Assembly: GCA_047617785.1 (NCBI GenBank)
Contig: JBLGBK010000016.1
Span: 1-11,770 of the forward strand
Direction of reading: 5' to 3'
Source: Colwellia polaris
GTDB lineage: Archaea; Nanohalarchaeota; Nanosalinia; Nanosalinales; Nanosalinaceae
Length of the DNA: 11,770 bases
Under the pieces are notes generated by a model. It did not search any database and had not been told where the DNA came from. It saw only the letters and a program-made list of their open reading frames with translations. The stretch's first letter is position 1, and each line of letters begins with the position of its first letter. This document shows, piece after piece, positions 41 through 11,427 of the stretch. Both the position numbers and the translations under genes were made by a program.

Positions 41-83
41 CCGAAAAGTGGCGTTTTTGACGCCGCGAGGTGTAACACTATTT

Positions 84-434
84 ATGGACAAGAAAGCTAA
101 CCCTACAAACCCTGTCCTGCGTGAGACTATCGAAACTCTCGAAGAGCAGGACGCAAACATCTGGAAAGATGTAGCTGACAACCTTGGAAAAGTAAATCGA
201 CAGAGACCTGAAGTTAACCTTTCAGATATTGAAAGAGTAACTGAAGAAGGTGACACAGTAGTCGTACCCGGAAAGGTTCTTGGTTCAGGATTTCTGAACA
301 AAGAGGTTGAAGTTGCAGCTTTCAAGGCTTCTAAAAATGCTAAAAACAAGATTAACGAAAAAGGAGAGTTCAAGTTTATCAGAGATCTCCTTGATGAAAA
401 CCCTGAAGGTTCAGAGGTGAAAATTGTAAAATGA
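84..434 (+). CDS. rpl18e: 50S ribosomal protein L18e (eL18)
   Basis: Motifs TNPVL, IWKDVA, EVNLSDI, TVVVPGKVLGSG, VAAFKAS and NPEGSEVKI. Start moved from 48 to ATG 84 because GAGGTG (67-72) precedes it; 116 aa. Confidence 0.95.
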   Translation: MDKKANPTNPVLRETIETLEEQDANIWKDVADNLGKVNRQRPEVNLSDIERVTEEGDTVVVPGKVLGSGFLNKEVEVAAFKASKNAKNKINEKGEFKFIRDLLDENPEGSEVKIVK

Positions 435-865
435 GCGAAGTAACAGTAATTGACGGCGAGAACAAGATTCTTGGACGACTTGCTTCAGAAGTAGCACGAC
501 GTGTAAAGGACGGAGAGGAAGTCCACATTGTCAACAGCGAGAAAGCAGTTGTCTCAGGAGACAAAAAAGAAGTTCTTGCAGACTACAAACAGAAGTTTGA
601 CCGTGGACGAAGAGACCGCGGACCCTATTTCCAAAAGAGACCCGACAAGATCCTGAAGCGCACAGTCAAGAACATGCTTCCGGACGGACCTGACGGAAGA
701 GAACTCAGATCCAACTACAGAACCTACCTACAAGTACCTGACAGATTTGACGAGGTACAAGATGTAGACGTTAAGGAAGGAGACGACTTGAGAAATAGAA
801 ACTACGTAACACTTACCGAGATCTCAGAACACATCGGTTCAGATTTCAGAGGTGAACAGAACTAA
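431..865 (+). CDS. rpl13: 50S ribosomal protein L13 (uL13)
   Basis: Motifs VIDGENKILGRLAS, IVNSEKAVVSG and GPYFQKRPDKILKRTVKNMLP. ATGA overlap with rpl18e; SD GAGGTGA at 414-420. Confidence 0.96.
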   Translation: MSEVTVIDGENKILGRLASEVARRVKDGEEVHIVNSEKAVVSGDKKEVLADYKQKFDRGRRDRGPYFQKRPDKILKRTVKNMLPDGPDGRELRSNYRTYLQVPDRFDEVQDVDVKEGDDLRNRNYVTLTEISEHIGSDFRGEQN

Positions 866-1275
866 TGAGCAACGAAGCAGTACACGCATCAGGAAAACGA
901 AAGACAGCAAAGGCACGAGCAACAATCAACGACGGAGATGGAGAGCTCCGAATCAACTCCCGGCCTCTTCACGTACAGGAAGAAATGGTTCAGCAGAGAG
1001 TCAAAGAACCTCTCACCATCGCAGGCGAAGAAGTCTACGGCGACCTCACAATTGAGGTCAACGCCAACGGTGGCGGAGTACAGGGACAGGCAGAAGCCAT
1101 GCGAATGGCAGTAGCCCGTGCACTAGTAGAATGGACTGACAGCGACGAGCTTGAAAGAGAGTTCAGAGAATACGATAGAAACATGATAGTCGAAGACCCT
1201 CGAAGAACCGAGACCAGAAAACCAAGCCAGTCGAGCAAAGGAGCCCGACACAAACAGCAGAAGTCTTACAGGTAA
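865..1275 (+). CDS. rps9: 30S ribosomal protein S9 (uS9)
   Basis: Motifs GKRKTAKARA, GGGVQGQAEA.R.AVARAL, DPRRTE and C-terminal QKSYR. TAATG overlap with rpl13; SD GAGGTGA at 849-855. Confidence 0.96.
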   Translation: MSNEAVHASGKRKTAKARATINDGDGELRINSRPLHVQEEMVQQRVKEPLTIAGEEVYGDLTIEVNANGGGVQGQAEAMRMAVARALVEWTDSDELEREFREYDRNMIVEDPRRTETRKPSQSSKGARHKQQKSYR

Positions 1276-1283
1276 AAAGTACA

Positions 1284-1481
1284 ATGGAATTTCCAGTACG
1301 CTGCATGAGCTGCGGACAGGTCATCGGCGACAAGTGGGACGAATACCAGGAACGAGTTGAAGACGGCGAGGAACAAGGAGAAGTACTTGACAGCCTTAAC
1401 GTTGACAAGTACTGTTGCCGTACAATCTTCCTCACTCACGTTGACTACGCAGACGAAGTAGCCGAGCACAAGATCGCATAA
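1284..1481 (+). CDS. rpoN: DNA-directed RNA polymerase subunit N (Rpo10)
   Basis: PVRCMSCG and VLDSL...YCCR zinc-binding motifs; 65 aa; canonical position after S9. Confidence 0.96.
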   Translation: MEFPVRCMSCGQVIGDKWDEYQERVEDGEEQGEVLDSLNVDKYCCRTIFLTHVDYADEVAEHKIA

Positions 1482-1498
1482 GAAGGCGCTCAAACAAC

Positions 1499-1520
1499 TT
1501 TTTTCTTTTTTTATTTCTTC
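1499..1520 (+). terminator. Oligo-T archaeal terminator of the ribosomal protein/rpoN operon
   Basis: TTTTTTCTTTTTTTATTTCTTC starting 17 nt after the rpoN stop. Confidence 0.65.
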
Positions 1521-1550
1521 TCAAAGGATTTCTTAATCTAGAACAAATTT

Positions 1551-2720
1551 CTAATTCTCAGTCACGCCAAGGTCTTCTTCTTTCAACCATTTAGAATAGC
1601 CAAGTAGTCCAAATGTACATAGACCTGTGTATAAGAATCCTGCTGATAAACCTTGTTTGAAGGAGTCTGTGTAAATTGAGACTCCCAGAACTATAGCGTA
1701 TAAGATTAGTTTTCCTATGTTCAGGAATATGTCGCGTAAAGCGTAGAATTCCAGTATGTCTTCATCTTCAGCTATATCCGCGTATATAGAGTAAAGCGGC
1801 ACGTAATAGACCATGAATGCTAGACCTGCAAAGAACGAAAGCATTACTACATGCGTTGTTGTAGCCACCATTGTACGTGCAAAGTGCGCCAGCGTTATAG
1901 CGAGTAGTCCAGCTACTATCATCTTCAGACGGCCGTATTTCTGAGATAGTTTACCCGTAATTAAAGCCATCAGTACTGCTCCAATACCTTCTACTGTTCG
2001 TGCTCCCCCTGCGCTTACCTCACCTCCAATAACTAAGAATACAAACAGCGGGAAAAGATAAACTGCCGCTCCTATGTCTGCACCACGTAGAAGGAACAAT
2101 CCTGCGAACTTTCTGTGTTCTTTGTCCCATATATCCTTTACACTATAATCTAGAGGGTCACGATGGTCACCAGACATCAGTAGCGGGATTATAGAAAGTA
2201 CCAGAAATACAAGTGCGACAGATACAAGCATTGGAAAGCCGAAAGTAGCCATTATGACGCCACCGGTTAGAGGTGCTATAGCGCCAGCTAAACGCGGCAA
2301 CCCAATCATTTTACCTGATTCATCGCTTCTTTCACCGTCGCTTGAATCTACCGCGAACTCAGAGTTAAGCGAAAGCCAGTGAAGCGCCTGTGCTACAGCG
2401 TAAACAACTGCTACAGATACAGCTATAGTAGGTGTTATATCATAGAAACGTAAAAGCACAAAAGCAGGTATATAAAAAGCGTAACTTGCTATCAAGCCGT
2501 GTTTAAAACCTATCCGAGATATTAGAAATGAAAGCGGAACAACACTGATAGCAAACGCCGAAGCCAGTACTATGAGATACATAAATGCTAAATTGTACGA
2601 AAGCCCTGCTGAGACGATCTGTATCGGTATGAATATACCGATCAGAGACACCACAAATCTTTGGAGGAACTCGTATAAGTATATCTGGTCTACTTCTTTT
2701 CTATGCAGGAACTGTAGCAT
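1551..2720 (-). CDS. Major facilitator superfamily transporter, substrate unknown
   Basis: 389 aa with about 12 hydrophobic segments in two halves. Motif-A-like loops LISRIGFK and GKLSQKYGRLK; GAIAPLTGG after TM5. Confidence 0.85.
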   Translation of the reverse strand: MLQFLHRKEVDQIYLYEFLQRFVVSLIGIFIPIQIVSAGLSYNLAFMYLIVLASAFAISVVPLSFLISRIGFKHGLIASYAFYIPAFVLLRFYDITPTIAVSVAVVYAVAQALHWLSLNSEFAVDSSDGERSDESGKMIGLPRLAGAIAPLTGGVIMATFGFPMLVSVALVFLVLSIIPLLMSGDHRDPLDYSVKDIWDKEHRKFAGLFLLRGADIGAAVYLFPLFVFLVIGGEVSAGGARTVEGIGAVLMALITGKLSQKYGRLKMIVAGLLAITLAHFARTMVATTTHVVMLSFFAGLAFMVYYVPLYSIYADIAEDEDILEFYALRDIFLNIGKLILYAIVLGVSIYTDSFKQGLSAGFLYTGLCTFGLLGYSKWLKEEDLGVTEN

Positions 2721-2761
2721 CTATAGCTTGTATTAAGGGAGCTGGAGTTAAAAAATATTGT

Positions 2762-3139
2762 TTAGTTCAGTATCTTCCTCAAGGCTGGTTCGATCTGCCG
2801 TAGATTGGGCGCCAATTCCAGTTCTTGTAACTCATCTTTCGCCACCCATTTCAGGTCGGAGAACTTTTCCTCCTCTAGAGAAGGTGACTCCTCTGTAGAA
2901 GCAATGTAGCCGTGCCACATGTAGAGATCACCATCCTTCATGAACTCTCCTGTGTAGAAAGGTTTCTCCAGTTCAACTTCAATACCTATCTCTTCTTCTG
3001 CTTCACGTACTGCTGCTTGGGTCGGCGATTCATCGTTTTCAACTTTACCACCAGGTACTTCCCAGTATTCCTCTTTGCTTCGATAGATAAGAAGTACTTT
3101 GCCGCCCTCAACTATCAGATTTCCTGCTAGTTCGATCAT
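2762..3139 (-). CDS. NUDIX hydrolase (MutT-like)
   Basis: Full Nudix box GKVENDESPTQAAVREAEEEIGI, preceded by WEVPG. Start revised to ATG 3139 (MIELAGNLIV), with a TTAATA TATA candidate about 27-32 nt upstream; 125 aa. Confidence 0.9.
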   Translation of the reverse strand: MIELAGNLIVEGGKVLLIYRSKEEYWEVPGGKVENDESPTQAAVREAEEEIGIEVELEKPFYTGEFMKDGDLYMWHGYIASTEESPSLEEEKFSDLKWVAKDELQELELAPNLRQIEPALRKILN

Positions 3140-3200
3140 ACGAAAGCAAATAGTAGAACCATGATTATTAATCCTACAGTTTCTTCCCGTGTATTGTATC

Positions 3201-3216
3201 AAAAAGAGAAGAAAAA
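3201..3216 (-). terminator. Oligo-T terminator downstream of the HIT gene
   Basis: Minus strand reads TTTTTCTTCTCTTTTT, starting 16 nt past the HIT stop. Confidence 0.5.
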
Positions 3217-3232
3217 TTAGTTAGCGAGGTTT

Positions 3233-3637
3233 TTACTCGAGTCCTTCGCGTAGCTCTTCTGCGATTGCTTCGCCTTCTTCCAGTTCACTTCGGTTGTACG
3301 TAATGTCAAGTTCGTTGCCATCGTAGATCGGTGTGACGTGGAAGTGTAGATGAAATACCTCTTGTCCTGCCTTCTCACCGTTATTCTGTGCGATGTTTAC
3401 ACCCTCTGCACCAAACTTCTCTTTTACAGCGTTTGAAACCTTGACAAGCGGCTTCCACATGTAGCTCATGTTTTCTGCTTCATGGATATCATCGACGTGT
3501 TCCTTAGGTACTACAAGCGTGTGGCCTTTGGATACCGGATGCGCGTCCAGGAATGCGACCACTTTGTCATCTTCGTAGACTTTGTGTCCTGGTAGTTCTC
3601 CGTCGATTATCTGGCAGAATATACAGTCATCAGTCAT
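3233..3637 (-). CDS. HIT family (Hint/PKCI-like) nucleotide hydrolase
   Basis: N-terminal DCIFC, AFLDAHPVSKGHTLVVPKEH, and histidine triad GQEVFHLHFHV. Confidence 0.93.
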   Translation of the reverse strand: MTDDCIFCQIIDGELPGHKVYEDDKVVAFLDAHPVSKGHTLVVPKEHVDDIHEAENMSYMWKPLVKVSNAVKEKFGAEGVNIAQNNGEKAGQEVFHLHFHVTPIYDGNELDITYNRSELEEGEAIAEELREGLE

Positions 3638-3652
3638 ATATTTTTCACTCTT

Positions 3653-4252
3653 TTAGTCTATTTTCTGTCTTTTTTTGTCTCTCTGATTTAGTGCTTGATC
3701 TATGGACTGATCTTTAGTCTGTTCAGCGGAGTCGATGATTTCGTTGACTCTTTTGTTGCCGCTGTACTCCGGTCGTAGTTCTCCACGGAATACATCTTCG
3801 AGTTCGCTCCACTGTTCGTCCTGGATCATTTCCTGTACTCTTTCCTGCTTCAGAGTGTCAACAAGTTCTTCCTGGTCCATGTCTTCGATTTCTTTGACGA
3901 TTCCCCGGTCTTCCATCAGTTCTTGTTTACGTTTAATCGCGATGAACCCGTCGATTACGCGTAGGGCATCCATTACCTGTGCGTGTTCGTTATGGAAGAT
4001 GCTCATTTCGTCTTCAATAGATGCTATTTCTTCTGCAAGCTCTTCTTTCAGTAGTTGTTCGTCTGTTTCCTGCAGTCTCTGGAACTTGGCTCTGCGGTCT
4101 TCTGCCAGTCCTTCATGTTTATCTCGTTTTAGTTCCAGGTCAGCTCTAAGGTTGGATCTTTCTTCTTTCAGTTCATCTAGATCCATGTCGTTGATGCTGA
4201 TCTGGTCGTCGTGTGTGAATTTGTCTACTATTCGGCTTAATACACTTACCAT
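3653..4252 (-). CDS. All-helical coiled-coil protein, possibly ESCRT-III/PspA/Snf7-like
   Basis: 199 aa, acidic. Amphipathic N-terminus MVSVLSRIVDKF, two long heptad helices, then shorter helices. The CDS is well supported; the family assignment is inference. Confidence 0.6.
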   Translation of the reverse strand: MVSVLSRIVDKFTHDDQISINDMDLDELKEERSNLRADLELKRDKHEGLAEDRRAKFQRLQETDEQLLKEELAEEIASIEDEMSIFHNEHAQVMDALRVIDGFIAIKRKQELMEDRGIVKEIEDMDQEELVDTLKQERVQEMIQDEQWSELEDVFRGELRPEYSGNKRVNEIIDSAEQTKDQSIDQALNQRDKKRQKID

Positions 4253-4281
4253 AATAACTACAGTTATACACGTGTACCCGG

Positions 4282-4295
4282 TTAAAAGCTTTCCT
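4282..4295 (-). promoter_or_regulatory. Putative BRE/TATA promoter for the 3653-4252 gene
   Basis: Minus strand reads AGGAAAGCTTTTAA, with TTTTAA about 30 nt before the ATG. Confidence 0.5.
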
Positions 4296-4606
4296 CAAGC
4301 GTATGTCTGTCTGTAGACATTTAGTTTGTACTTCAGGCGTTTGAAACATTCTTGGGCTTCATCCCCGACGTGGAAGAAAATTCGTTTCCAACCCGCATCT
4401 GTCTTCACCTTGATGTTCGGGTATACTGATCCGTCGTCGTACTCTAGTTCTTTGATATCGGAGAAATGTACTTCGTCTAGGAGCTTTCTTTCGCTGAAGC
4501 TGTTTTTGATCCTTCCCCATTCCTCATCATTATTTTTTCTGCGTTCAACATGAGTATCTGTCAGAGCTACCTCGCCAAGATCTGACTTGAATTTTTCTAC
4601 GCTCAT
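4295..4606 (-). CDS. Hypothetical protein, possible PH-like fold
   Basis: 103 aa. Pattern of short beta strands (GEVALTDTHV, VHFSDIKELEY, IKVKT, RIFF) ending in one helix (EAQECFKRLK). Fold is inferred. Confidence 0.6.
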   Translation of the reverse strand: MSVEKFKSDLGEVALTDTHVERRKNNDEEWGRIKNSFSERKLLDEVHFSDIKELEYDDGSVYPNIKVKTDAGWKRIFFHVGDEAQECFKRLKYKLNVYRQTYA

Positions 4607-4728
4607 AACCAGTATTTTTTGGCTGCGACTGTTAACTGTAACGGGAGGTAGTTGACATGATAAACGGAAAACCTAGAACATGTTTAAAAGTATTAACCTC
4701 TCCTGTATTGACACAGGTTAATGGAAAT

Positions 4729-4803
<75 letters not shown>

Positions 4804-4837
4804 CTTTTCCTGTACTATTATTTTTCTGGACTTTCTA

Positions 4838-5230
4838 TTAGTTCCTACAGACCTCTGTTGCCTCATCTCCTCCTAGCGATAGTATGAGCTGATCTCCAGA
4901 GTCTACATCAGGAACCTGAAGTTGAACGGTTTCTCTTGAGTCAACCACTTCTTGCGTCCATACGGGATTATCAACAGGTCTATTGTTTATGAATACATTC
5001 ACCTCTGAGGAGTTGAACGCCGCATCATTTGTGTTTCTTATACTATAGTGATATTCTGTGCCCTGCTGCCAGCAGCTTTCAAATTTTACATCGAGAGCTG
5101 TCTCAAAATTCGATATTTCATCCGTATTTGGCGTGGCTGTATTAACATAGAAATAAACTGTGCCTGTAGCTGTTACTGTAAGTGAGATTAAAAGCACAAC
5201 TGCAACTACTGGCGTTATTCCTTTCTTCAT
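4838..5230 (-). CDS. Archaeal type IV pilin-like protein (class III signal peptide)
   Basis: MKKG/ITPVVAVVLLISLTV matches the PibD/FlaK cleavage motif plus hydrophobic helix. Small beta-rich head with two Cys. CGAAAG-TATAAA promoter candidate about 26-37 nt upstream. Confidence 0.85.
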   Translation of the reverse strand: MKKGITPVVAVVLLISLTVTATGTVYFYVNTATPNTDEISNFETALDVKFESCWQQGTEYHYSIRNTNDAAFNSSEVNVFINNRPVDNPVWTQEVVDSRETVQLQVPDVDSGDQLILSLGGDEATEVCRN

Positions 5231-5323: not shown

Positions 5324-5845
5324 ATGCCAGAAGACAGTATTGACTGGGCAAACCTTGACCAGGGTGAGAAAATCCTCTGGAAAGGCCAGCCACGGATGAA
5401 AAGCATTTTACCTGCTTTAGTTATCGGCATCCCTCTATCTCTGGTAGGAGTAGGTCTTCTGATAATTATAGGCGCCTATCTTCAGATTCAGAACACTAGT
5501 TTCCTTGTAACTAATCAGGGCTTATATAAGAAGACAGGAATTCTCTCAAGAAACGTCCAGAAAATTGGTTTCGACAAGGTCCAGAATATTTCATTCAGCC
5601 AGGGAATATTTGGAAGCCAGTTCGACTACGGCAATATCGAAATTAGTACCGCTGGCGGACAGGGCGTAGAGATGCGTTTCAACAGCATCAATAGACCGAG
5701 AGAAGTAGAAAACATTATCAACAAGAACCTTGACCACTCCTCGGAAAGCCGACAGACCGAAAGAGCTCAGAGAAGCAGCGATCAAGTTGTAGAAGAGCTA
5801 CAGGAGATCAGAAAGTTGTTAAAGAGTATAGATCAGAAACTATAG
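5324..5845 (+). CDS. Membrane protein with bacterial PH domain (bPH_2/DUF304, YdbS-like)
   Basis: GEKILWKGQP, a hydrophobic hairpin, FLVTNQGL..KTGILSR, I.FDKVQNISFSQG, YGNIEISTAG, and a C-terminal short coiled coil EELQEIRKLLKSI. Confidence 0.85.
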   Translation: MPEDSIDWANLDQGEKILWKGQPRMKSILPALVIGIPLSLVGVGLLIIIGAYLQIQNTSFLVTNQGLYKKTGILSRNVQKIGFDKVQNISFSQGIFGSQFDYGNIEISTAGGQGVEMRFNSINRPREVENIINKNLDHSSESRQTERAQRSSDQVVEELQEIRKLLKSIDQKL

Positions 5846-6550
5846 ATCTTTCTCTCCTGTATACTCTCCTTTTTCTCTTCTGAAATCTTCTTCATCCATT
5901 TCCTCATGTACATGCGCGACTAGTCCGGGTGTCCGAGCGATTATAAAGAAGCCTTTTCCAAGCTCGGGAGGCCATTCCAGATCACTCATAACAGCTGCGA
6001 TCGCACCATCCACGTTCATAACAAGGTCGACCTTGCGCTCCGCGAAGACTTCTCTGATTTCTTGCATCTTATCCACACTTGGGCCTGCCAAACCCAGCCC
6101 TTCTGCTTTGTTCAGAATCTTTGATGCACGCGGATCCTCACCTGTATAGACTTTATGACCTAGACCCGGTATTTTCTCACCAGCTCCAAGCTTGTTATCA
6201 ACTATTGTCTCAGCAGTATCCTCAGATTGCAGTAATTCCATAGCTTCTTCGATCGCACCACCGTGTTTATCGCCTAGAGCCATTACTCCTGCAGCTACAG
6301 AAGTGTTCATATCGTTTCCTCCACTTTGAACTGTCCGTGCAGAAACCGTTGATGGATTTCCGACTCCATGATCTATTGATGACGATAGTATCGTATTGAA
6401 TATTTCTGATTCCTCTTCAGTCGGCTCCTTACCTTTGAGAAGAACCCATATAGCGTCCGGAAAGCTCATTTCCATTACTTCTTCCAACGGTTTTCCTCTT
6501 ATTACAGCATCTTCGCCTGAGGAAGCGATGTCTGTTTTCCATTCGGTCAT
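5840..6550 (-). CDS. ccl: Citryl-CoA lyase (short citrate synthase-family protein, CCL/ACL C-terminal type)
   Basis: 236 aa from ATG 6550 (MTEWKTDI), much shorter than a citrate synthase. Motifs W.T.I, IRG..L, DHG..PS, HGGA, IPGLGH, DPR, NVDGA and RTPGLVAH. Confidence 0.82.
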   Translation of the reverse strand: MTEWKTDIASSGEDAVIRGKPLEEVMEMSFPDAIWVLLKGKEPTEEESEIFNTILSSSIDHGVGNPSTVSARTVQSGGNDMNTSVAAGVMALGDKHGGAIEEAMELLQSEDTAETIVDNKLGAGEKIPGLGHKVYTGEDPRASKILNKAEGLGLAGPSVDKMQEIREVFAERKVDLVMNVDGAIAAVMSDLEWPPELGKGFFIIARTPGLVAHVHEEMDEEDFRREKGEYTGEKDL

Positions 6551-6603
6551 ATGAATATAATTCGGCCGGAGATTCAAAAGCTATTGCGGTAAAAGTCTTT
6601 TCC

Positions 6604-7137
6604 ATGTACCGCAGAATATTGGCAGCGATTGCAGCTGGAGCGGTTTTAGTTTCAGGAATAACAGGTTTTGCTCTATTGGAGCATAGAACTAACATGGAAG
6701 ATTTGAACAGGATGGTTCTAAGCGCTGATGAGCTAGGTGAAGATTTTGAACTGACTCACGAAACTATATCTAACACCACTAATTACGAAAACTCCAGTAT
6801 AGAAATGCGCGTGGATAGAAGATTTGTAGATAATAAGAGCACAGTAATTCTCAGCTCAGCCACTGTTTACAGCTCAAAAAGCGCTGCAGGAAGCGTTCGC
6901 ACAGATTTTATAGATCATACAGCTGATAACGTAACTAGCGCTGATTTCGGAAACGGAAATATAGTCAAGATACATCAGCGCACATTGTTCAAAGATGTTG
7001 TCTATTACTACAATCAGAAAGGCAATTTAATTTACTTTGTAAGCGTTGCAAGTTATTCAGGCTATGAGGATGGAAAAGCTGAAGAATTAATGAAGAAAAT
7101 GAATCCAGAAAACCTTTTAACCAGATTTATCAGCTAG
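6604..7137 (+). CDS. Hypothetical secreted or membrane-anchored protein
   Basis: 177 aa with a basic N-terminus plus hydrophobic stretch (MYRRILAAIAAGAVLVSGITGFALL). The rest is alpha/beta-patterned with several N-x-S/T sequons. Confidence 0.65.
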   Translation: MYRRILAAIAAGAVLVSGITGFALLEHRTNMEDLNRMVLSADELGEDFELTHETISNTTNYENSSIEMRVDRRFVDNKSTVILSSATVYSSKSAAGSVRTDFIDHTADNVTSADFGNGNIVKIHQRTLFKDVVYYYNQKGNLIYFVSVASYSGYEDGKAEELMKKMNPENLLTRFIS

Positions 7138-7518
7138 CTATACATTATCTATAGCTTTCGTTAAACCTTCCTTTATCTCTATAGCCACTTCTTCCAGTTC
7201 ATCATTGTCAGTCAATTCGAGAAGTTTCTCAGGGTTTACTGCTGAAACATAGACGTTTCCTTCTTCTTTGTAAACTATCACATTACAAGGCAGAAGTAGG
7301 CCAAGCTCTGTTTCTTCCTGAAGTGCTTCGTATGCGTGTGACGGGCTGCAGGCGCCTAGTATAGTGTACTCCTGGAATTCTACATCCAATTTTTTCTCAA
7401 GCTTCTCCTGTATATTTATCTCAGTGAGTACGCCAAAATCTTGCTTACCGAGTTCTTGCTCAGTCTTTTCAATTGCCTCCCCAAAATTGAGTTCCGTCTC
7501 TCTAGTCATGCTGTACAT
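7138..7518 (-). CDS. DUF302 domain protein
   Basis: FGVLTEINIQ, YTILGAC.P..A and GLLLPCNVIVY are characteristic of DUF302; 126 aa. TTATAA lies about 26-31 nt upstream. Confidence 0.88.
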   Translation of the reverse strand: MYSMTRETELNFGEAIEKTEQELGKQDFGVLTEINIQEKLEKKLDVEFQEYTILGACSPSHAYEALQEETELGLLLPCNVIVYKEEGNVYVSAVNPEKLLELTDNDELEEVAIEIKEGLTKAIDNV

Positions 7519-7559
7519 AGATCATAATTATTTCCGGAGAGAATTATAAGGTGCGGATA

Positions 7560-8450
7560 TCAAAGCAGTTCCTGTAGCTTGTCGCCGATTTCATGATGTA
7601 CATCTACTACATGTGCACCGGCGTCACGCAGCTTCTTCTCCTTGTGCGACGGTTTTCCTCTTTCTCCACGTATGATTGCTCCTGCGTGTCCGTACTGCTG
7701 CGAAGGCATGTCTTCGGTGAATTGTCCCGCTATGAACGCGATCAATGGTTTGGAGAACCCTCCTGATTCAAGGAATTCTGCTGCTTTTTCTTCATATGTT
7801 CCCCCAAGTTCTCCGTATATTACTACTGCTTCTGTCTGGTCGTCTTCTTCGAACATTTTCAGCGCATCCTCGAATGTTGTTCCGGCGATGACGTCACCTC
7901 CGAGACCTGCTGCGGTTGATACGCCGTAACCTGCCTGGCGTACGACCCATGCAGTTTCTGTTGTCATTCCTCCAGATTTGGATATTATTCCCACTTTTCC
8001 TGGTTTGTAGACTTTTCCCGGTTCGTTTCCTCCTATAGGCCCGAGCTTCGCCTCTCCTGGAGTTATTATTCCTACTGAAGTTGGCCCTACCATCGTTGCG
8101 TTTTCCTGCTGTACCTTCTGGTATACTTGCCATGCGTCTTTAGTCGGTATTCTTTCTGTTATGACATTGAGTGTTTTTATGCCGTTTTCCAGTGCTTCGA
8201 ATATTGCGTCTTTGGCTGCGAAAGGAGGCACGTATATCAGCGAGGCATTGATTTCTGGATGTTCTCCAAGAGCTTCTGCGACCGTGTCATAGACTGGAAC
8301 ACTCTCGACCTCCTGTCCTCCTTTGCCAGGAGTTACCCCTGCAATAACGTCGGTTCCGTATTCGATCATCTCCGGTACTTTTTCACTAGCCTCCCTCCCC
8401 GTAATTCCTTGTACCAGCACTTTCGTATCTCCATCTACCAGTATTGACAT
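7560..8450 (-). CDS. ccsB: Succinyl-CoA synthetase alpha (SucD)-family protein, most likely citryl-CoA synthetase small subunit
   Basis: CoA-binding VQGITG and AGVTPGKGG; phospho-His GHAGA. Has GPTSVG and SKSGGMTTE (ACL/CCS-like) instead of SucD GPNCPG and SRSGTLTYE. SD AGGTGA upstream. Family is certain; substrate is inferred. Confidence 0.8.
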   Translation of the reverse strand: MSILVDGDTKVLVQGITGREASEKVPEMIEYGTDVIAGVTPGKGGQEVESVPVYDTVAEALGEHPEINASLIYVPPFAAKDAIFEALENGIKTLNVITERIPTKDAWQVYQKVQQENATMVGPTSVGIITPGEAKLGPIGGNEPGKVYKPGKVGIISKSGGMTTETAWVVRQAGYGVSTAAGLGGDVIAGTTFEDALKMFEEDDQTEAVVIYGELGGTYEEKAAEFLESGGFSKPLIAFIAGQFTEDMPSQQYGHAGAIIRGERGKPSHKEKKLRDAGAHVVDVHHEIGDKLQELL

Positions 8451-9071
8451 CTAGTCATTCACCTTTTGAAGCGCTTTGGAGACGTTCTCATAATCCAGTT
8501 TTTCTATCTGTAAACCTTCAGTGCTCGATCCGAAAGTATGGAATTCTTTAACCCATACAAAGTCCATACCGGTTTTTTCAGCTGCTTTATCTCTGTCAAC
8601 GTAGTTTCCGAAGTAGACAAAGTTCTCTGCCGGTTCTTCACGTTCTTGGAGAAACGCCTTGAATATCTTAGCATCAGGTTTTTCCACACCTACTTCAGCC
8701 GAGACTTTGAAACCTCTGTAACCTATGCCTGCTTCCTCAAAGTTCTGTTTGTAGAACTTCTTGGCCTCCTTGCTGTTGTCGCTTATGAAGCCCACCGGCC
8801 CATATTCCTCGTTTATCTCCTTTACTTCAGGCAGGATCTTCCGTTTCAGATAATTTGATTTCCATTCAAGATAGGACTGCGTAATATCTTCTGCATTTCC
8901 GTTAAGGTTGTTTTCCTGCAGCCATTTATCCACCTGTTCTGGTACATAGATGTTGTATTTGTTGATATCCATCTCTGGAGCATTTTCTACATGCTGCTGT
9001 ATTATTTCGTTTATCTTGCTGTGTGAAGGTACAAGCGTGTCTCCTATATCGAATACTGGTATCTTAGTCAA
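8451..9071 (-). CDS. HAD-superfamily hydrolase (subfamily IA-like), paralogue 2
   Basis: Motifs FDIGDTL, ISDN, KPD..IF and GNYVDRD. TTG start with AGGTGA SD (9081-9086), overlapping the upstream HAD gene by 8 bp. Confidence 0.85.
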   Translation of the reverse strand: MTKIPVFDIGDTLVPSHSKINEIIQQHVENAPEMDINKYNIYVPEQVDKWLQENNLNGNAEDITQSYLEWKSNYLKRKILPEVKEINEEYGPVGFISDNSKEAKKFYKQNFEEAGIGYRGFKVSAEVGVEKPDAKIFKAFLQEREEPAENFVYFGNYVDRDKAAEKTGMDFVWVKEFHTFGSSTEGLQIEKLDYENVSKALQKVND

Positions 9072-9711
9072 GGTTCTGTATCACCTGTTTGAGCTGTCTA
9101 AAATTGAGTTGATTGATTCTAGGTCCCTCAAAACTGGAGTTTACGGTATCAAACTGCGTTGTCCATATAAACTGCATTCCTGCGTCAAGTGCTCCTGCAT
9201 CCCGGTTCGCATCGTTGCCTATGTAGACGAAATCTTCTGCGCTTTCACTTCTCTGCTCTACAAACGAGTTAAATATCTGCGGATCTGGTTTCTCAACCCC
9301 TACTTCGTCTGATACAACGATTTTATCGTAGTCAACGTTATGTCTGTCGAGCTTTGCTTCCAGAAGATGTTTGGCTCTGACGGTGTTATCGCTTATTATA
9401 CCTATAGTTCCAAACTTGCGGTTGCATCGTGCTAGGATATCAAATACGTTATTTTCAATCAATAGATCTTCGAAAGCATCAAGATAGCGGTGTCTGCAGG
9501 TGTGTGCTATTTCTTCTGGATCTCCCGTTAGTTCATATTTTCTAAGGTATTCCTCGATCTCTGTAGGATCGTACATCATAAACTTGTCCGGATCAAATTC
9601 GTGGACTGGTTCATGGTTGCGCTGACGTAGTTCATCCTCTATAACATGCTCTACAAATCTTCGTGAGGGTACTAGTGTATCTCCTATATCAAATACAGGT
9701 ATTCTGCTCAT
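9064..9711 (-). CDS. HAD-superfamily hydrolase (subfamily IA-like), paralogue 1
   Basis: Motifs FDIGDTL, ISDN, KPDPQIF and GNDANRD. TAATG overlap with the upstream ligase gene and a GGAGG SD. Confidence 0.87.
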   Translation of the reverse strand: MSRIPVFDIGDTLVPSRRFVEHVIEDELRQRNHEPVHEFDPDKFMMYDPTEIEEYLRKYELTGDPEEIAHTCRHRYLDAFEDLLIENNVFDILARCNRKFGTIGIISDNTVRAKHLLEAKLDRHNVDYDKIVVSDEVGVEKPDPQIFNSFVEQRSESAEDFVYIGNDANRDAGALDAGMQFIWTTQFDTVNSSFEGPRINQLNFRQLKQVIQNLD

Positions 9712-10853
9712 TATTCCTCCTCCGTGTATTCTTCAACCAGCTCCATCAAGTCTTCTGCGCTTTCCGTCATTGGTTTATCGTTTCTAAACAGCTGCATGTT
9801 AAGATCGAGTTTTTCTTTCTTTTCGCGTAACATTTCGAACGCTTTATCTGCGTTCGGTCCATCGCGCCGAATAACAATTGGGTAATCAGGCTCAACTTCT
9901 TCTAGTGCTTTTACGAATCCCTTCATAGTTCTGTAGATATCGGTGTTGTTTGCTGTACCTCCTACATGCCAGAGACCGTTCAATCCTGGTTTACTCATGA
10001 TAACCTTGCTGAGTCTGTAGACTTTCTCTGTCGGCGGATTGCCGCCGTATTCAGTATAGTTTGCTGGTTTGCCTCCGTACTCGATCAGTGCATCCATGTT
10101 TGTTAGGCTGGCTCCTCCTCCAGCCAACATCATGCCTATATCGCCGTCTAGTTCTGTGTATTTACCTGCTACGCCCCTGTGGTCGTCTTCATCTATTTTC
10201 TCGGCTTCAAGTTCTCTTTCTGTTTTTTGCTCCCCTGTCGCTGTTCTTTCCGGGAATTCCCTATCGTGCCTGTAAGCTGCATCATCCTCCAAATCCATCA
10301 TAGCGTCGAGAACCACGTAATCTTCTTCTGTTTCCGCAAGAGGATTGATTTCCAGCAGTCTTGCATCTTCTTCTAGAAATGCTTTAAACAGTTTCTGTAG
10401 CGTGCTGCCGAGCCCAATTATCTTTTTACCTTCGAAACCTTGTTCTTTAAGAAACTGGCGAAATCTGAAACTTGATCCGTCTTTCAATACAAGTTTACTG
10501 GCTTCTCTATCTTCAATACCTGTTCCTCCTTCGCTTGAGAAAATCATAACCGGATTACGTGTATCTGTGTCGTACATAAAAGATACATAGTATTCTCCTT
10601 CAAAATCTAGTTTTTTCTCTACCAGAACTTCTTCAGGTTCGACGCCTTTGAACTCTGCACCCATCATCTCATGTTTCAGTGCTTCTGCCTCCTCCACATT
10701 TTTCGCAAACTGAATCGCATCCATTTCCATTCTATTGTTTGCCAGTATCTGTGCCTTAACGACATATTCTTGCGCAGAGTCTAGTTGCTGCGAGGGCGTC
10801 TTCAAGCCATGTTTTTGCAGAATCTGTTTGGCTTCGTGTTCGTGGAGTTTCAT
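9711..10853 (-). CDS. ccsA: Succinyl-CoA synthetase beta (SucC)/ATP-citrate lyase-family ATP-grasp protein, most likely citryl-CoA synthetase large subunit
   Basis: MKLHEHEAK, VVKAQ, EGG.GIE, LLEINPL and LDA mark the ATP-grasp part. The C-terminal domain has AGGGAS, ANYTEYGGNP, GGTANNTD and RRDGPN, matching ACL citrate-binding motifs rather than SucC NGAGL, NFLDVGG, GGI.RCD and RL.GTN. Confidence 0.82.
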   Translation of the reverse strand: MKLHEHEAKQILQKHGLKTPSQQLDSAQEYVVKAQILANNRMEMDAIQFAKNVEEAEALKHEMMGAEFKGVEPEEVLVEKKLDFEGEYYVSFMYDTDTRNPVMIFSSEGGTGIEDREASKLVLKDGSSFRFRQFLKEQGFEGKKIIGLGSTLQKLFKAFLEEDARLLEINPLAETEEDYVVLDAMMDLEDDAAYRHDREFPERTATGEQKTERELEAEKIDEDDHRGVAGKYTELDGDIGMMLAGGGASLTNMDALIEYGGKPANYTEYGGNPPTEKVYRLSKVIMSKPGLNGLWHVGGTANNTDIYRTMKGFVKALEEVEPDYPIVIRRDGPNADKAFEMLREKKEKLDLNMQLFRNDKPMTESAEDLMELVEEYTEEE

Positions 10854-10881: not shown

Positions 10882-11427
10882 TTATCGGCCGTTATAAGAT
10901 GCATCATATTCTAGAACGCCTTCATCAATATCAAGAAATACTCCCGAGGTTCTGCCCTCTTCAATATTCCAGAAGATTTTGGCATCTGAGAAATAATTCT
11001 TAGCAAATTCTTCTGCTACACTTTGCTTGGCCCCCTCCTCGATTAACTCATCTAATTCTCGTTCTTCGTCTATAAAGTATTCAGAAACGGTGGAGCTGTA
11101 ATCAATTCCCGCAATCATAATCTCAGAATTTCCATAGTCGATTCCATCTATGTCTAGCATAGTGTTGAACTCTGATAGATATTCAGCGAGTTCAGTGGCG
11201 TCCTTGTCTGCAGTTTTAACGTGAGCTGCATAACCCACTTCGGAAGAAGAATCATAGACTGCTAATCCCAGGCATTTGCTTAGGCCTACTATAGCAAGTT
11301 CGCCAGAGTCTGCTCTTGCCATATCGTCATTAATACCCGATATTTCTGTTCTTTGATTGTCCTCAGAAACTAGATCTTGATCCCAGCTTAATGAATCATT
11401 TTCAAGATCTTCTTTAATCGTACTCAT
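10882..11427 (-). CDS. CheD-like (Cys/His) deamidase-fold protein
   Basis: GLSKCLGLAVYDSSSEVGYAAHV parallels CheD LGSCV..ALYD....GG.AH, with a later IMIAG. Very acidic; no che genes nearby in the window. Confidence 0.6.
   Translation of the reverse strand: MSTIKEDLENDSLSWDQDLVSEDNQRTEISGINDDMARADSGELAIVGLSKCLGLAVYDSSSEVGYAAHVKTADKDATELAEYLSEFNTMLDIDGIDYGNSEIMIAGIDYSSTVSEYFIDEERELDELIEEGAKQSVAEEFAKNYFSDAKIFWNIEEGRTSGVFLDIDEGVLEYDASYNGR

Follow-up and report, generated by a model that had tools for sequence, protein, structure and literature searches.

The 11,770-nucleotide stretch analysed here (the window) is the entire contig JBLGBK010000016.1 (C16) of the draft genome GCA_047617785.1, deposited as Colwellia polaris and placed by GTDB in the nanohaloarchaeal family Nanosalinaceae; the draft comprises 787 kb in 22 contigs and has a completeness of 96.55%. 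Its minus strand carries a set of genes that the original prediction described as a three-gene, split form of ATP-citrate lyase (ACL), in which citryl-CoA synthetase (CCS) and citryl-CoA lyase (CCL) are separate enzymes. The ccsA-type gene for the large subunit of the synthetase (positions 9711-10853; 380 amino acids, aa) encodes an ATP-grasp domain and a citrate-binding domain of the ACL type. It is followed by two genes for HAD-family hydrolase-like proteins, HAD gene 1 (9064-9711, minus strand, 215 aa) and HAD gene 2 (8451-9071, minus strand, 206 aa, with a TTG start), and then by the ccsB-type gene for the small, or alpha, subunit (7560-8450, minus strand, 296 aa), which has CoA-binding and phospho-histidine (GHAGA) domains and no fused lyase. 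These four genes are tightly packed in an operon-like manner: the ATG of HAD gene 1 overlaps the stop codon of ccsA (TAATG) and is preceded by GGAGGAGG, and the stop codon of HAD gene 2 abuts the ATG of ccsB (TAGATG). The ccl gene, which encodes a short protein of the citrate synthase fold, spans 5840-6550 (236 aa) when read from the ATG at 6550, or 5840-6577 (245 aa) when read from a TTG; its ATG lies 1,009 bases downstream of ccsB on the same strand. The proteins of the citrate system are acidic, with isoelectric points of 4.6-4.8. The nearest named homologues of the large subunit come from Candidatus Nanosalina, Nanohalobium, Nanohalovita and Nanohalococcus, in agreement with the nanohaloarchaeal host proposed from the DNA letters; among the best 120 of 6,730 homologues the identity is 69-100%, and every one labelled with an organism is nanohaloarchaeal.

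The motifs of both synthetase subunits had been read as those of ACL and not of succinyl-CoA synthetase (SucCD), and the profile searches bear this out. AGGGAS, NYTEYGGNP, GGTANNTD and RRDGPN are all present in the large-subunit translation, of which residues 2-173 match Pfam ATP-grasp_2 (102.3 bits) and residues 216-364 match Citrate_bind (84.8 bits, cut-off 26.8), the only match to the latter family in the genome. Ligase_CoA is not among the five Pfam families matched by this protein, and the NCBIfam cut-off for SucC is missed (TIGR01016, 197.2 vs 375.55 bits). Its best match among solved structures is the large subunit of the Hydrogenobacter thermophilus CCS (6hxq_B, 227.6 bits), followed at a distance by the ACL beta chain 6hxj_A (139.4 bits) and the best SucC chain, 3ufx_B (131.3 bits). 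The comparison of the citrate site covers the motifs in the alignment with the solved H. thermophilus CcsA, where GGTANNT is identical and the surrounding motifs are nearly so.

In the alpha subunit the predicted GPTSVG and SKSGGM are both found, and the chain terminates beyond the GHAGA histidine region. It matches Pfam CoA_binding (81.7 bits) and is the sole Ligase_CoA match in the genome (59.4 bits), and 36 aligned rows all keep its residues G254-H255-A256-G257. The solved H. thermophilus CcsB (6hxq_A) has in common with this protein VGPTSxG, SKSGGxTT and insertions of four residues (IGGN) and two residues, none of which is present in the SucD chain 2yv2. On the SucD profile TIGR01019 it scores 310.7 bits, below the cut-off of 353.2. 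When the same profile was run over 26 genomes, the SucD proteins of the three same-phylum genomes devoid of Citrate_bind scored 396.6-401.4 bits, and 14 alpha subunits of the family to which the window genome belongs (family f1 below), its own included, scored 293.9-322.4. A true SucD from a nanohaloarchaeon of another family (locus L139, G022:C2:94340-95182) was read through one in-frame TGA.

These values bear on an explanation by which the genes would be ordinary SucCD together with a truncated citrate synthase, left over from a lost tricarboxylic acid (TCA) cycle. Some database entries do call the homologues 'succinyl-CoA synthetase beta subunit', and the top-scoring solved match of the alpha subunit is a SucD. 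We nevertheless consider this explanation extremely improbable: the curated SucC and SucD cut-offs are both missed, the C-terminal half of the large subunit matches Citrate_bind, the genuine SucD proteins of the phylum score about 90 bits higher on TIGR01019, and the phylogenetic trees of both subunits, described below, separate the window proteins from SucC and SucD.

The separate CCL-type gene that had been predicted about 1 kb downstream of ccsB passes the NCBIfam citryl-CoA lyase profile NF004869 with 233.3 bits (cut-off 212). It is the sole Citrate_synt match in the genome and covers only positions 139-352 of the 357 in that profile, so that the N-terminal part of citrate synthase is lacking. 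The best solved match is the H. thermophilus citryl-CoA lyase 6hxp_A (183.2 bits), and the next reaches 85.6 bits. All 57 aligned rows have the residues H105, H141, R150, D190 and R215 (245-aa numbering), and this invariant set presumably matches the catalytic His, His, Asp and Arg of pig citrate synthase. Among the relatives, 30 homologues have 232-243 aa and one open reading frame (ORF) call has 291 aa, three broken copies being excluded from this range. A lyase of 154 aa in G014 (locus L027) and one split into ORFs of 115 and 131 aa in G058 (locus L177) may be pseudogenes or assembly errors.

Trees of the two subunits had been proposed as a check of the prediction, and in neither do the window proteins group with SucC- or SucD-type rows, the trees being built without named H. 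thermophilus, Chlorobium or malate thiokinase anchors. Both are quick searches under LG+G4 with support from the SH-like approximate likelihood-ratio test (SH-aLRT) only. The CcsA tree, made with IQ-TREE, has 107 rows, with CcsA-type ORFs shorter than 340 aa excluded and 19 of 150 representatives selected manually. Its 14 nanohaloarchaeal rows form one group (support 100) that is sister (91) to 53 rows of candidate phyla radiation (CPR) or DPANN origin, within a 74-row group (95). A branch with a support of 100 splits the CcsA side from nine rows, eight of which have SucC motifs and the ninth of which is a SucC-like second copy from locus L136. In the alpha-subunit tree (80 rows, rooted with two same-phylum SucD) the nanohaloarchaeal proteins lie inside a 69-row group (95) of alpha subunits encoded beside CcsA-type genes, and the SucD rows and an eight-row lyase-less group fall outside it. 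Since both trees and the TIGR01019 split set the subunits apart from SucCD, the window proteins are not members of the SucCD clades.

The H. thermophilus system, to which the best solved matches of CcsA and Ccl belong, is said to have been characterised biochemically, in work by Aoshima in 2004, as CcsA/CcsB plus Ccl, which cleave citrate in two steps within the reductive TCA cycle. The window set resembles it (6hxq, 6hxp) in having its domains in the same order on three separate polypeptides, in the GGTANNT of CcsA, and in the CcsB indels and motifs. It differs in the length of the small subunit (353 residues in the solved chain, 296 aa here), in the one or two HAD-like genes that split ccsA and ccsB, in the acidity of the window proteins and in its metabolic setting: H. 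thermophilus is an autotroph, whereas the window genome is that of a fermentative symbiont and has no surrounding reductive TCA cycle. The two-subunit ACL of Chlorobium limicola (AclB/AclA, 6hxj) has the same chemistry and homologous domains, and it is matched not only by the large subunit but also by the alpha subunit (182.7 bits) and the lyase (83.2 bits); there, in contrast, the lyase is fused to the C-terminus of the 617-aa alpha subunit and is not encoded by a gene of its own. SucCD belongs to the same superfamily and shares the two-subunit layout and the phospho-histidine motif, but its large subunit ends in a domain of the Ligase_CoA type where that of the window ends in a citrate-binding one, and the CcsB indels are a feature of the window alpha subunit. 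Thus the assignment to the three-gene split ACL type, CCS plus CCL, is upheld by domains, family cut-offs, solved-structure matches, indels and trees.

The ligase and the lyase might still act on a related hydroxy acid, such as 2-methylcitrate, homocitrate, citramalate or malate, in place of citrate. The CcsA-like superfamily is indeed diverse, with other motifs (NYCEIGG, NFCDTSG) occurring among the 150 representatives and among 77 loci that we collected outside Nanohaloarchaea, and the examined stretch of 31 of these loci contains no lyase. In the window, though, the GGTANNT of CcsA is exactly that of the H. thermophilus protein and the adjoining motifs are almost the same, Ccl clears the curated cut-off for citryl-CoA lyase, and the window contains no partner from the methylcitrate, lysine or glyoxylate pathways. 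A substrate other than citrate therefore appears decidedly unlikely.

The system is widespread in its lineage. Of 70 genomes from the phylum, the window genome counted, 45 contain Citrate_bind, and all of these belong to a single family: it was found in 44 of the 49 other f1 genomes, the five lacking it being 75-89% complete, and in none of 20 genomes from the four other families. Because 44 of 49 related genomes have retained the system, decay of a SucCD relic is disfavoured on this ground as well. The genes ccsA, ccsB and ccl occur together in 29 of 30 f1 relatives (10 of 10 in a first set and 19 of 20 in a further one); the exception, G041, has no ccl within the 6.2 kb examined.

Outside Nanohaloarchaea, a CcsA profile, with a search pattern that excluded the NFTDIGG variant, recovered the 77 loci, the majority of them in Magasanikbacteria, Saccharibacteria and other CPR, Woesearchaeota and Nanobdellati. 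Of these loci 76 contain a CcsA-type ORF, 66 an alpha subunit, 46 a lyase and 46 the complete trio, and many end at contig ends. As a rule the genes follow one another directly as ccsA-ccsB-ccl, the order of Nanohaloarchaea, and these genomes too are reduced. The 53-row CPR/DPANN group of the CcsA tree (Magasanikbacteria, Saccharibacteria, Woesearchaeota, Nanobdellati and others) contains the nearest relatives of the nanohaloarchaeal CcsA outside that lineage. In six CPR loci (L064, L068, L069, L075, L084 and L094) a hydrophobic ORF, some 130-140 aa long and with an N-terminus like MFEKIKMYF.NSPRRIG.VWF, stands between or beside the synthetase genes.

The absence of a full TCA cycle, expected from the outset for this organism, is borne out by the profile inventory. 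Searches of the genome gave no match to Aconitase, Iso_dh, Ldh_1_N (LDH/MDH type) or POR_N (pyruvate/2-oxoglutarate:ferredoxin oxidoreductase), nor to PEPcase, PEPcase_2, PEPCK_ATP, PEPCK_GTP or Biotin_carb_C; for succinate dehydrogenase, FAD_binding_2 matched only over its first 36 profile positions, on lipoamide dehydrogenase. As a candidate fumarase, the sole Lyase_1 match was rejected, being argininosuccinate lyase (argH, 289.4 bits against a cut-off of 279.5). This argH gene lies at C11:9253-10503, and none of six other same-family genomes searched has a Lyase_1 match. No reductive TCA cycle is thus encoded in the 96.6%-complete draft, and the citrate-cleaving system would stand alone, with no other TCA or reductive TCA enzyme beside it.

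Several genes that could use its products were found elsewhere in the genome. A cluster at C2:105459-114847 encodes a 387-aa malic enzyme, a 678-aa protein of the ADP-forming acetyl-CoA synthetase type and the E1 alpha, E1 beta, E2 and E3 components of pyruvate dehydrogenase (PDH); it is flanked by two genes for Rcas_1661-like thioredoxin-fold lipoproteins. A class-I aminotransferase gene is located between those for prephenate dehydrogenase and prephenate dehydratase (C2:96303-99084). The two prephenate enzymes represent the terminal steps of phenylalanine and tyrosine formation in a genome otherwise poor in biosynthesis.

By homology with the characterised enzymes, the ATP-grasp domain of CcsA would bind ATP, and the phosphoryl group would pass via the CcsB histidine (GHAGA) to citrate held in the citrate-binding domain of CcsA. 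CoA bound to CcsB would then displace the phosphate to give citryl-CoA, which Ccl would split into acetyl-CoA and oxaloacetate with its citrate-synthase-type His/His/Asp/Arg set. Citrate may be obtained from the haloarchaeal host or from the brine, and the sequence would most likely be run toward cleavage. The oxaloacetate could be converted to aspartate by the class-I aminotransferase, or to pyruvate by the malic enzyme. Malic enzyme has an oxaloacetate-decarboxylating side activity. The acetyl-CoA could yield acetate and ATP through the ADP-forming acetyl-CoA synthetase, and on paper, with oxaloacetate decarboxylation and PDH added, one citrate would give two acetate and two CO2, with a net gain of one ATP and one NADH.

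For its direction, we infer that cleavage of citrate is the more coherent choice and agrees better with the inventory than ATP-yielding operation in reverse would, citrate as the substrate being inferred likewise. Apart from citrate cleavage and aspartate transamination, the genome appears to hold no source of oxaloacetate; cleavage is favoured because no route to oxaloacetate by carboxylation of a C3 compound was seen and citrate has no other visible fate. The same enzymes could in principle run backwards, turning acetyl-CoA, oxaloacetate, ADP and phosphate into citrate and ATP as a form of substrate-level phosphorylation. The ACL of Desulfobacter postgatei is known to run in this ATP-yielding, citrate-forming direction, and the ACL-type reaction is close to equilibrium. 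The organism is, moreover, fermentative and obtains acetyl-CoA from PDH, and the accessible text of one preprint gives -5.9 kJ/mol for citryl-CoA synthesis (bioRxiv 10.1101/2022.10.25.513756). In this genome, on the other hand, only aspartate transamination could supply the oxaloacetate, with no C3-to-oxaloacetate route found, and the citrate formed would be a dead end, as neither aconitase nor isocitrate dehydrogenase was found. The reverse reaction would also gain nothing, because the ADP-forming acetyl-CoA synthetase already gives the same one ATP per acetyl-CoA without consuming oxaloacetate. We therefore regard operation in reverse as improbable.

A wider role, in which citrate cleavage by the symbiont supplies the missing step of a reductive TCA cycle that it shares with its haloarchaeal host, is put forward in the same preprint, the accessible portion of which states that Haloarchaea possess every enzyme of that cycle but the citrate-cleaving one and Nanohaloarchaea only CCS and CCL (bioRxiv 10.1101/2022.10.25.513756). 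Our genome inventory agrees with this on the side of the symbiont. Such a shared cycle, however, needs a two-way exchange of citrate, oxaloacetate and carbon derived from acetyl-CoA, and no carriers of this kind were identified; the window is silent on the metabolism of the host, and a shared cycle is unnecessary to explain why the genes are retained. It seems to us a very unlikely explanation.

Judged from gene content and protein families, the locus very probably encodes a two-enzyme, ATP-dependent citrate cleavage system of the Hydrogenobacter type that runs toward cleavage and has the HAD genes as probable accessories. The following points weigh against this conclusion. Both trees lack named anchors for H. 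thermophilus, Chlorobium and malate thiokinase and come from quick searches, and the alpha subunit has a higher total score against the solved archaeal SucD 2yv2 (290.7 bits) than against the solved CcsB (252.7 bits). The ccl gene is set apart from the synthetase genes in the window genome, where a plus-strand ORF of 177 aa with a hydrophobic N-terminus (6604-7137) interrupts the run from ccsB through a DUF302 gene to ccl; this ORF has no Pfam or NCBIfam match and no BLASTP match in 10 relatives. The absence calls of the inventory rest on a 96.6%-complete draft. No citrate carrier of the CitMHS, 2HCT, DASS or TctA type was found among all 40 ORFs with at least six predicted membrane spans. TctA is present in 14 of 16 relatives and missing from the window assembly and from G001, and a tblastn search with the TctA of two relatives returned only a fragment-like match of 51 residues at C1:119206-119352. 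Finally, the literature, as far as its text was accessible, yielded no assay of the activity, substrate or direction of a nanohaloarchaeal CCS or CCL.

The two HAD genes, like the DUF302 gene and the plus-strand ORF, do not figure in the original prediction. The two copies in the window are paralogues (36% identity, E = 2e-50), with Pfam HAD_2 scores of 48.6 bits for gene 1 and 25.4 bits for gene 2. Their family has 71 detectable members, all of the organism-named ones being nanohaloarchaeal. In 25 of the 30 f1 relatives the space between ccsA and ccsB is occupied by this family, with two copies in two of them; of the remaining relatives, G014 has a divergent HAD-like ORF in this place and four have no HAD gene. 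Among the 77 loci outside Nanohaloarchaea, by contrast, no HAD gene was found between ccsA and ccsB.

The product of HAD gene 1 falls below all the specific NCBIfam cut-offs, and a protein-cluster search returned generic HAD clusters only. Its structural model, with a predicted local distance difference test score (pLDDT) of 91.3, has the capped HAD-IA fold (C1 cap), and the nearest Foldseek hits are YfnB, PH1655 and NANP. In canonical HAD phosphatases motif I is DxDxT, and its second Asp serves as the general acid/base. In the window protein this motif reads FDIGDT, with D8, G10, D11 and T12 invariant in 54 family members. The family retains the nucleophile Asp, the Ser/Asp of motif II, the Lys and the last Asp, and has D-x-G-D-T as motif I. 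It thus shows the HAD fold without the complete active site of a canonical HAD phosphatase, Gly taking the place of the second Asp of motif I.

A possible parallel is provided by P0133, a singleton protein of 561 aa in which ATP-grasp_2 and Citrate_bind are followed by HAD_2 (43.4 bits) in the form of a short HAD domain without a cap. Its motif I is FDFGHT, again with Gly at position +2, and no significant BLASTP similarity was detected between this domain and the window HAD. That a CcsA is here fused to a HAD domain which also has the D-x-G-x-T pattern hints at a more than accidental link between synthetase and HAD. For the window HAD itself longer, fused relatives were sought and none found, which is weak evidence.

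Through the junctions described above, both HAD-like genes of the window are coupled translationally to the genes of the synthetase, and their products are probably accessory to it. Because the general acid is missing from motif I, one may speculate that they act on an acyl-phosphate or on a phospho-enzyme intermediate. A fuller proposal, which we put forward tentatively and consider rather unlikely, is that the CCS of family f1 has a lineage-specific third component, a non-canonical HAD protein (Asp+2 to Gly) that acts on citryl-phosphate or the phospho-enzyme or binds the synthetase, and that the whole system may serve as the single gateway from host citrate to oxaloacetate and aspartate, with extra ATP. 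The text of the two CCS papers (PMC4766312; bioRxiv 10.1101/2022.10.25.513756) yielded nothing relevant on HAD proteins, phosphatases, operons or synteny, and a literature search on HAD proteins in Nanohaloarchaea gave a single, unrelated review; the insertion of HAD genes between the subunit genes is, as far as we searched, the part of this locus not found in print.

The DUF302 gene downstream of ccsB (7138-7518, minus strand; 126 aa; Pfam DUF302, 83.9 bits) is found between ccsB and ccl only in G001 and G002, which belong to the same genus, among 10 relatives. Directly upstream of ccsA, at a gap of 28 bases, is a gene for an acidic 181-aa protein that belongs to no family (10882-11427, minus strand) and has weak homologues at the same position in G001 and G010. 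CTTATAA-like boxes were noticed upstream of ccsA and of the DUF302 gene, in a reading by eye without a control. A search of sequencing runs listed 17 holders of DNA and none of RNA. The rest of the contig carries, on the plus strand, genes for ribosomal proteins of the L18e/L15 type, L13 and S9 (48-1275) and, on the minus strand, those for an MFS transporter (1551-2720), a NUDIX hydrolase (2762-3202), a HIT protein (3233-3637) and a pilin-like protein whose N-terminus is of the archaellin/type IV pilin kind (4838-5230). Two further ORFs in the stretch 48-5230 have no family.

Various aspects of this picture have precedents. CCS and CCL were reported as the only TCA-type enzymes of Nanohaloarchaea, according to the accessible text of two sources (PMC4766312, 2016; bioRxiv 10.1101/2022.10.25.513756, 2022). 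The first of these, in the part available, describes a 'Ca. Haloredivivus' synthetase 35% identical to the H. thermophilus CCS and proposes that CCS/CCL together with malic enzyme regenerate acetyl-CoA and oxaloacetate (PMC4766312). The second, to the same extent, describes the CCS and CCL of Nanohaloarchaea, other DPANN and CPR as mis-annotated succinyl-CoA synthetase or citrate synthase and as monophyletic with CCS/CCL (bioRxiv 10.1101/2022.10.25.513756). Genes for PDH, AcdA and malic enzyme have been described (PMC10266531, PMC9765267), the clustering of malic enzyme, acdA and pdh appears in the accessible part of PMC9765267, and citrate uptake of the TctA type is proposed in that of PMC10266531. 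The identification of CCS and CCL at this locus, and their stand-alone status in Nanohaloarchaea, is therefore confirmed as correct and is not new, since it has already been published; the window contributes one more member, intact and conserved, and a more complete argument from genome context, and no discovery.

Nanohaloarchaea, which have next to no central metabolism of their own, live as obligate partners of haloarchaea, and the main question of their biology is what they draw from the host and how they form ATP and building blocks. A conserved, stand-alone citrate cleavage is one of the few concrete leads on nanohaloarchaeal metabolism. If the system does run toward cleavage, citrate would serve as a currency between the partners, and its cleavage would be the only source of oxaloacetate, an idea that is already in print. 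An accessory factor for an enzyme of the ATP-citrate lyase type, if the HAD proteins prove to be one, would be new enzymology.

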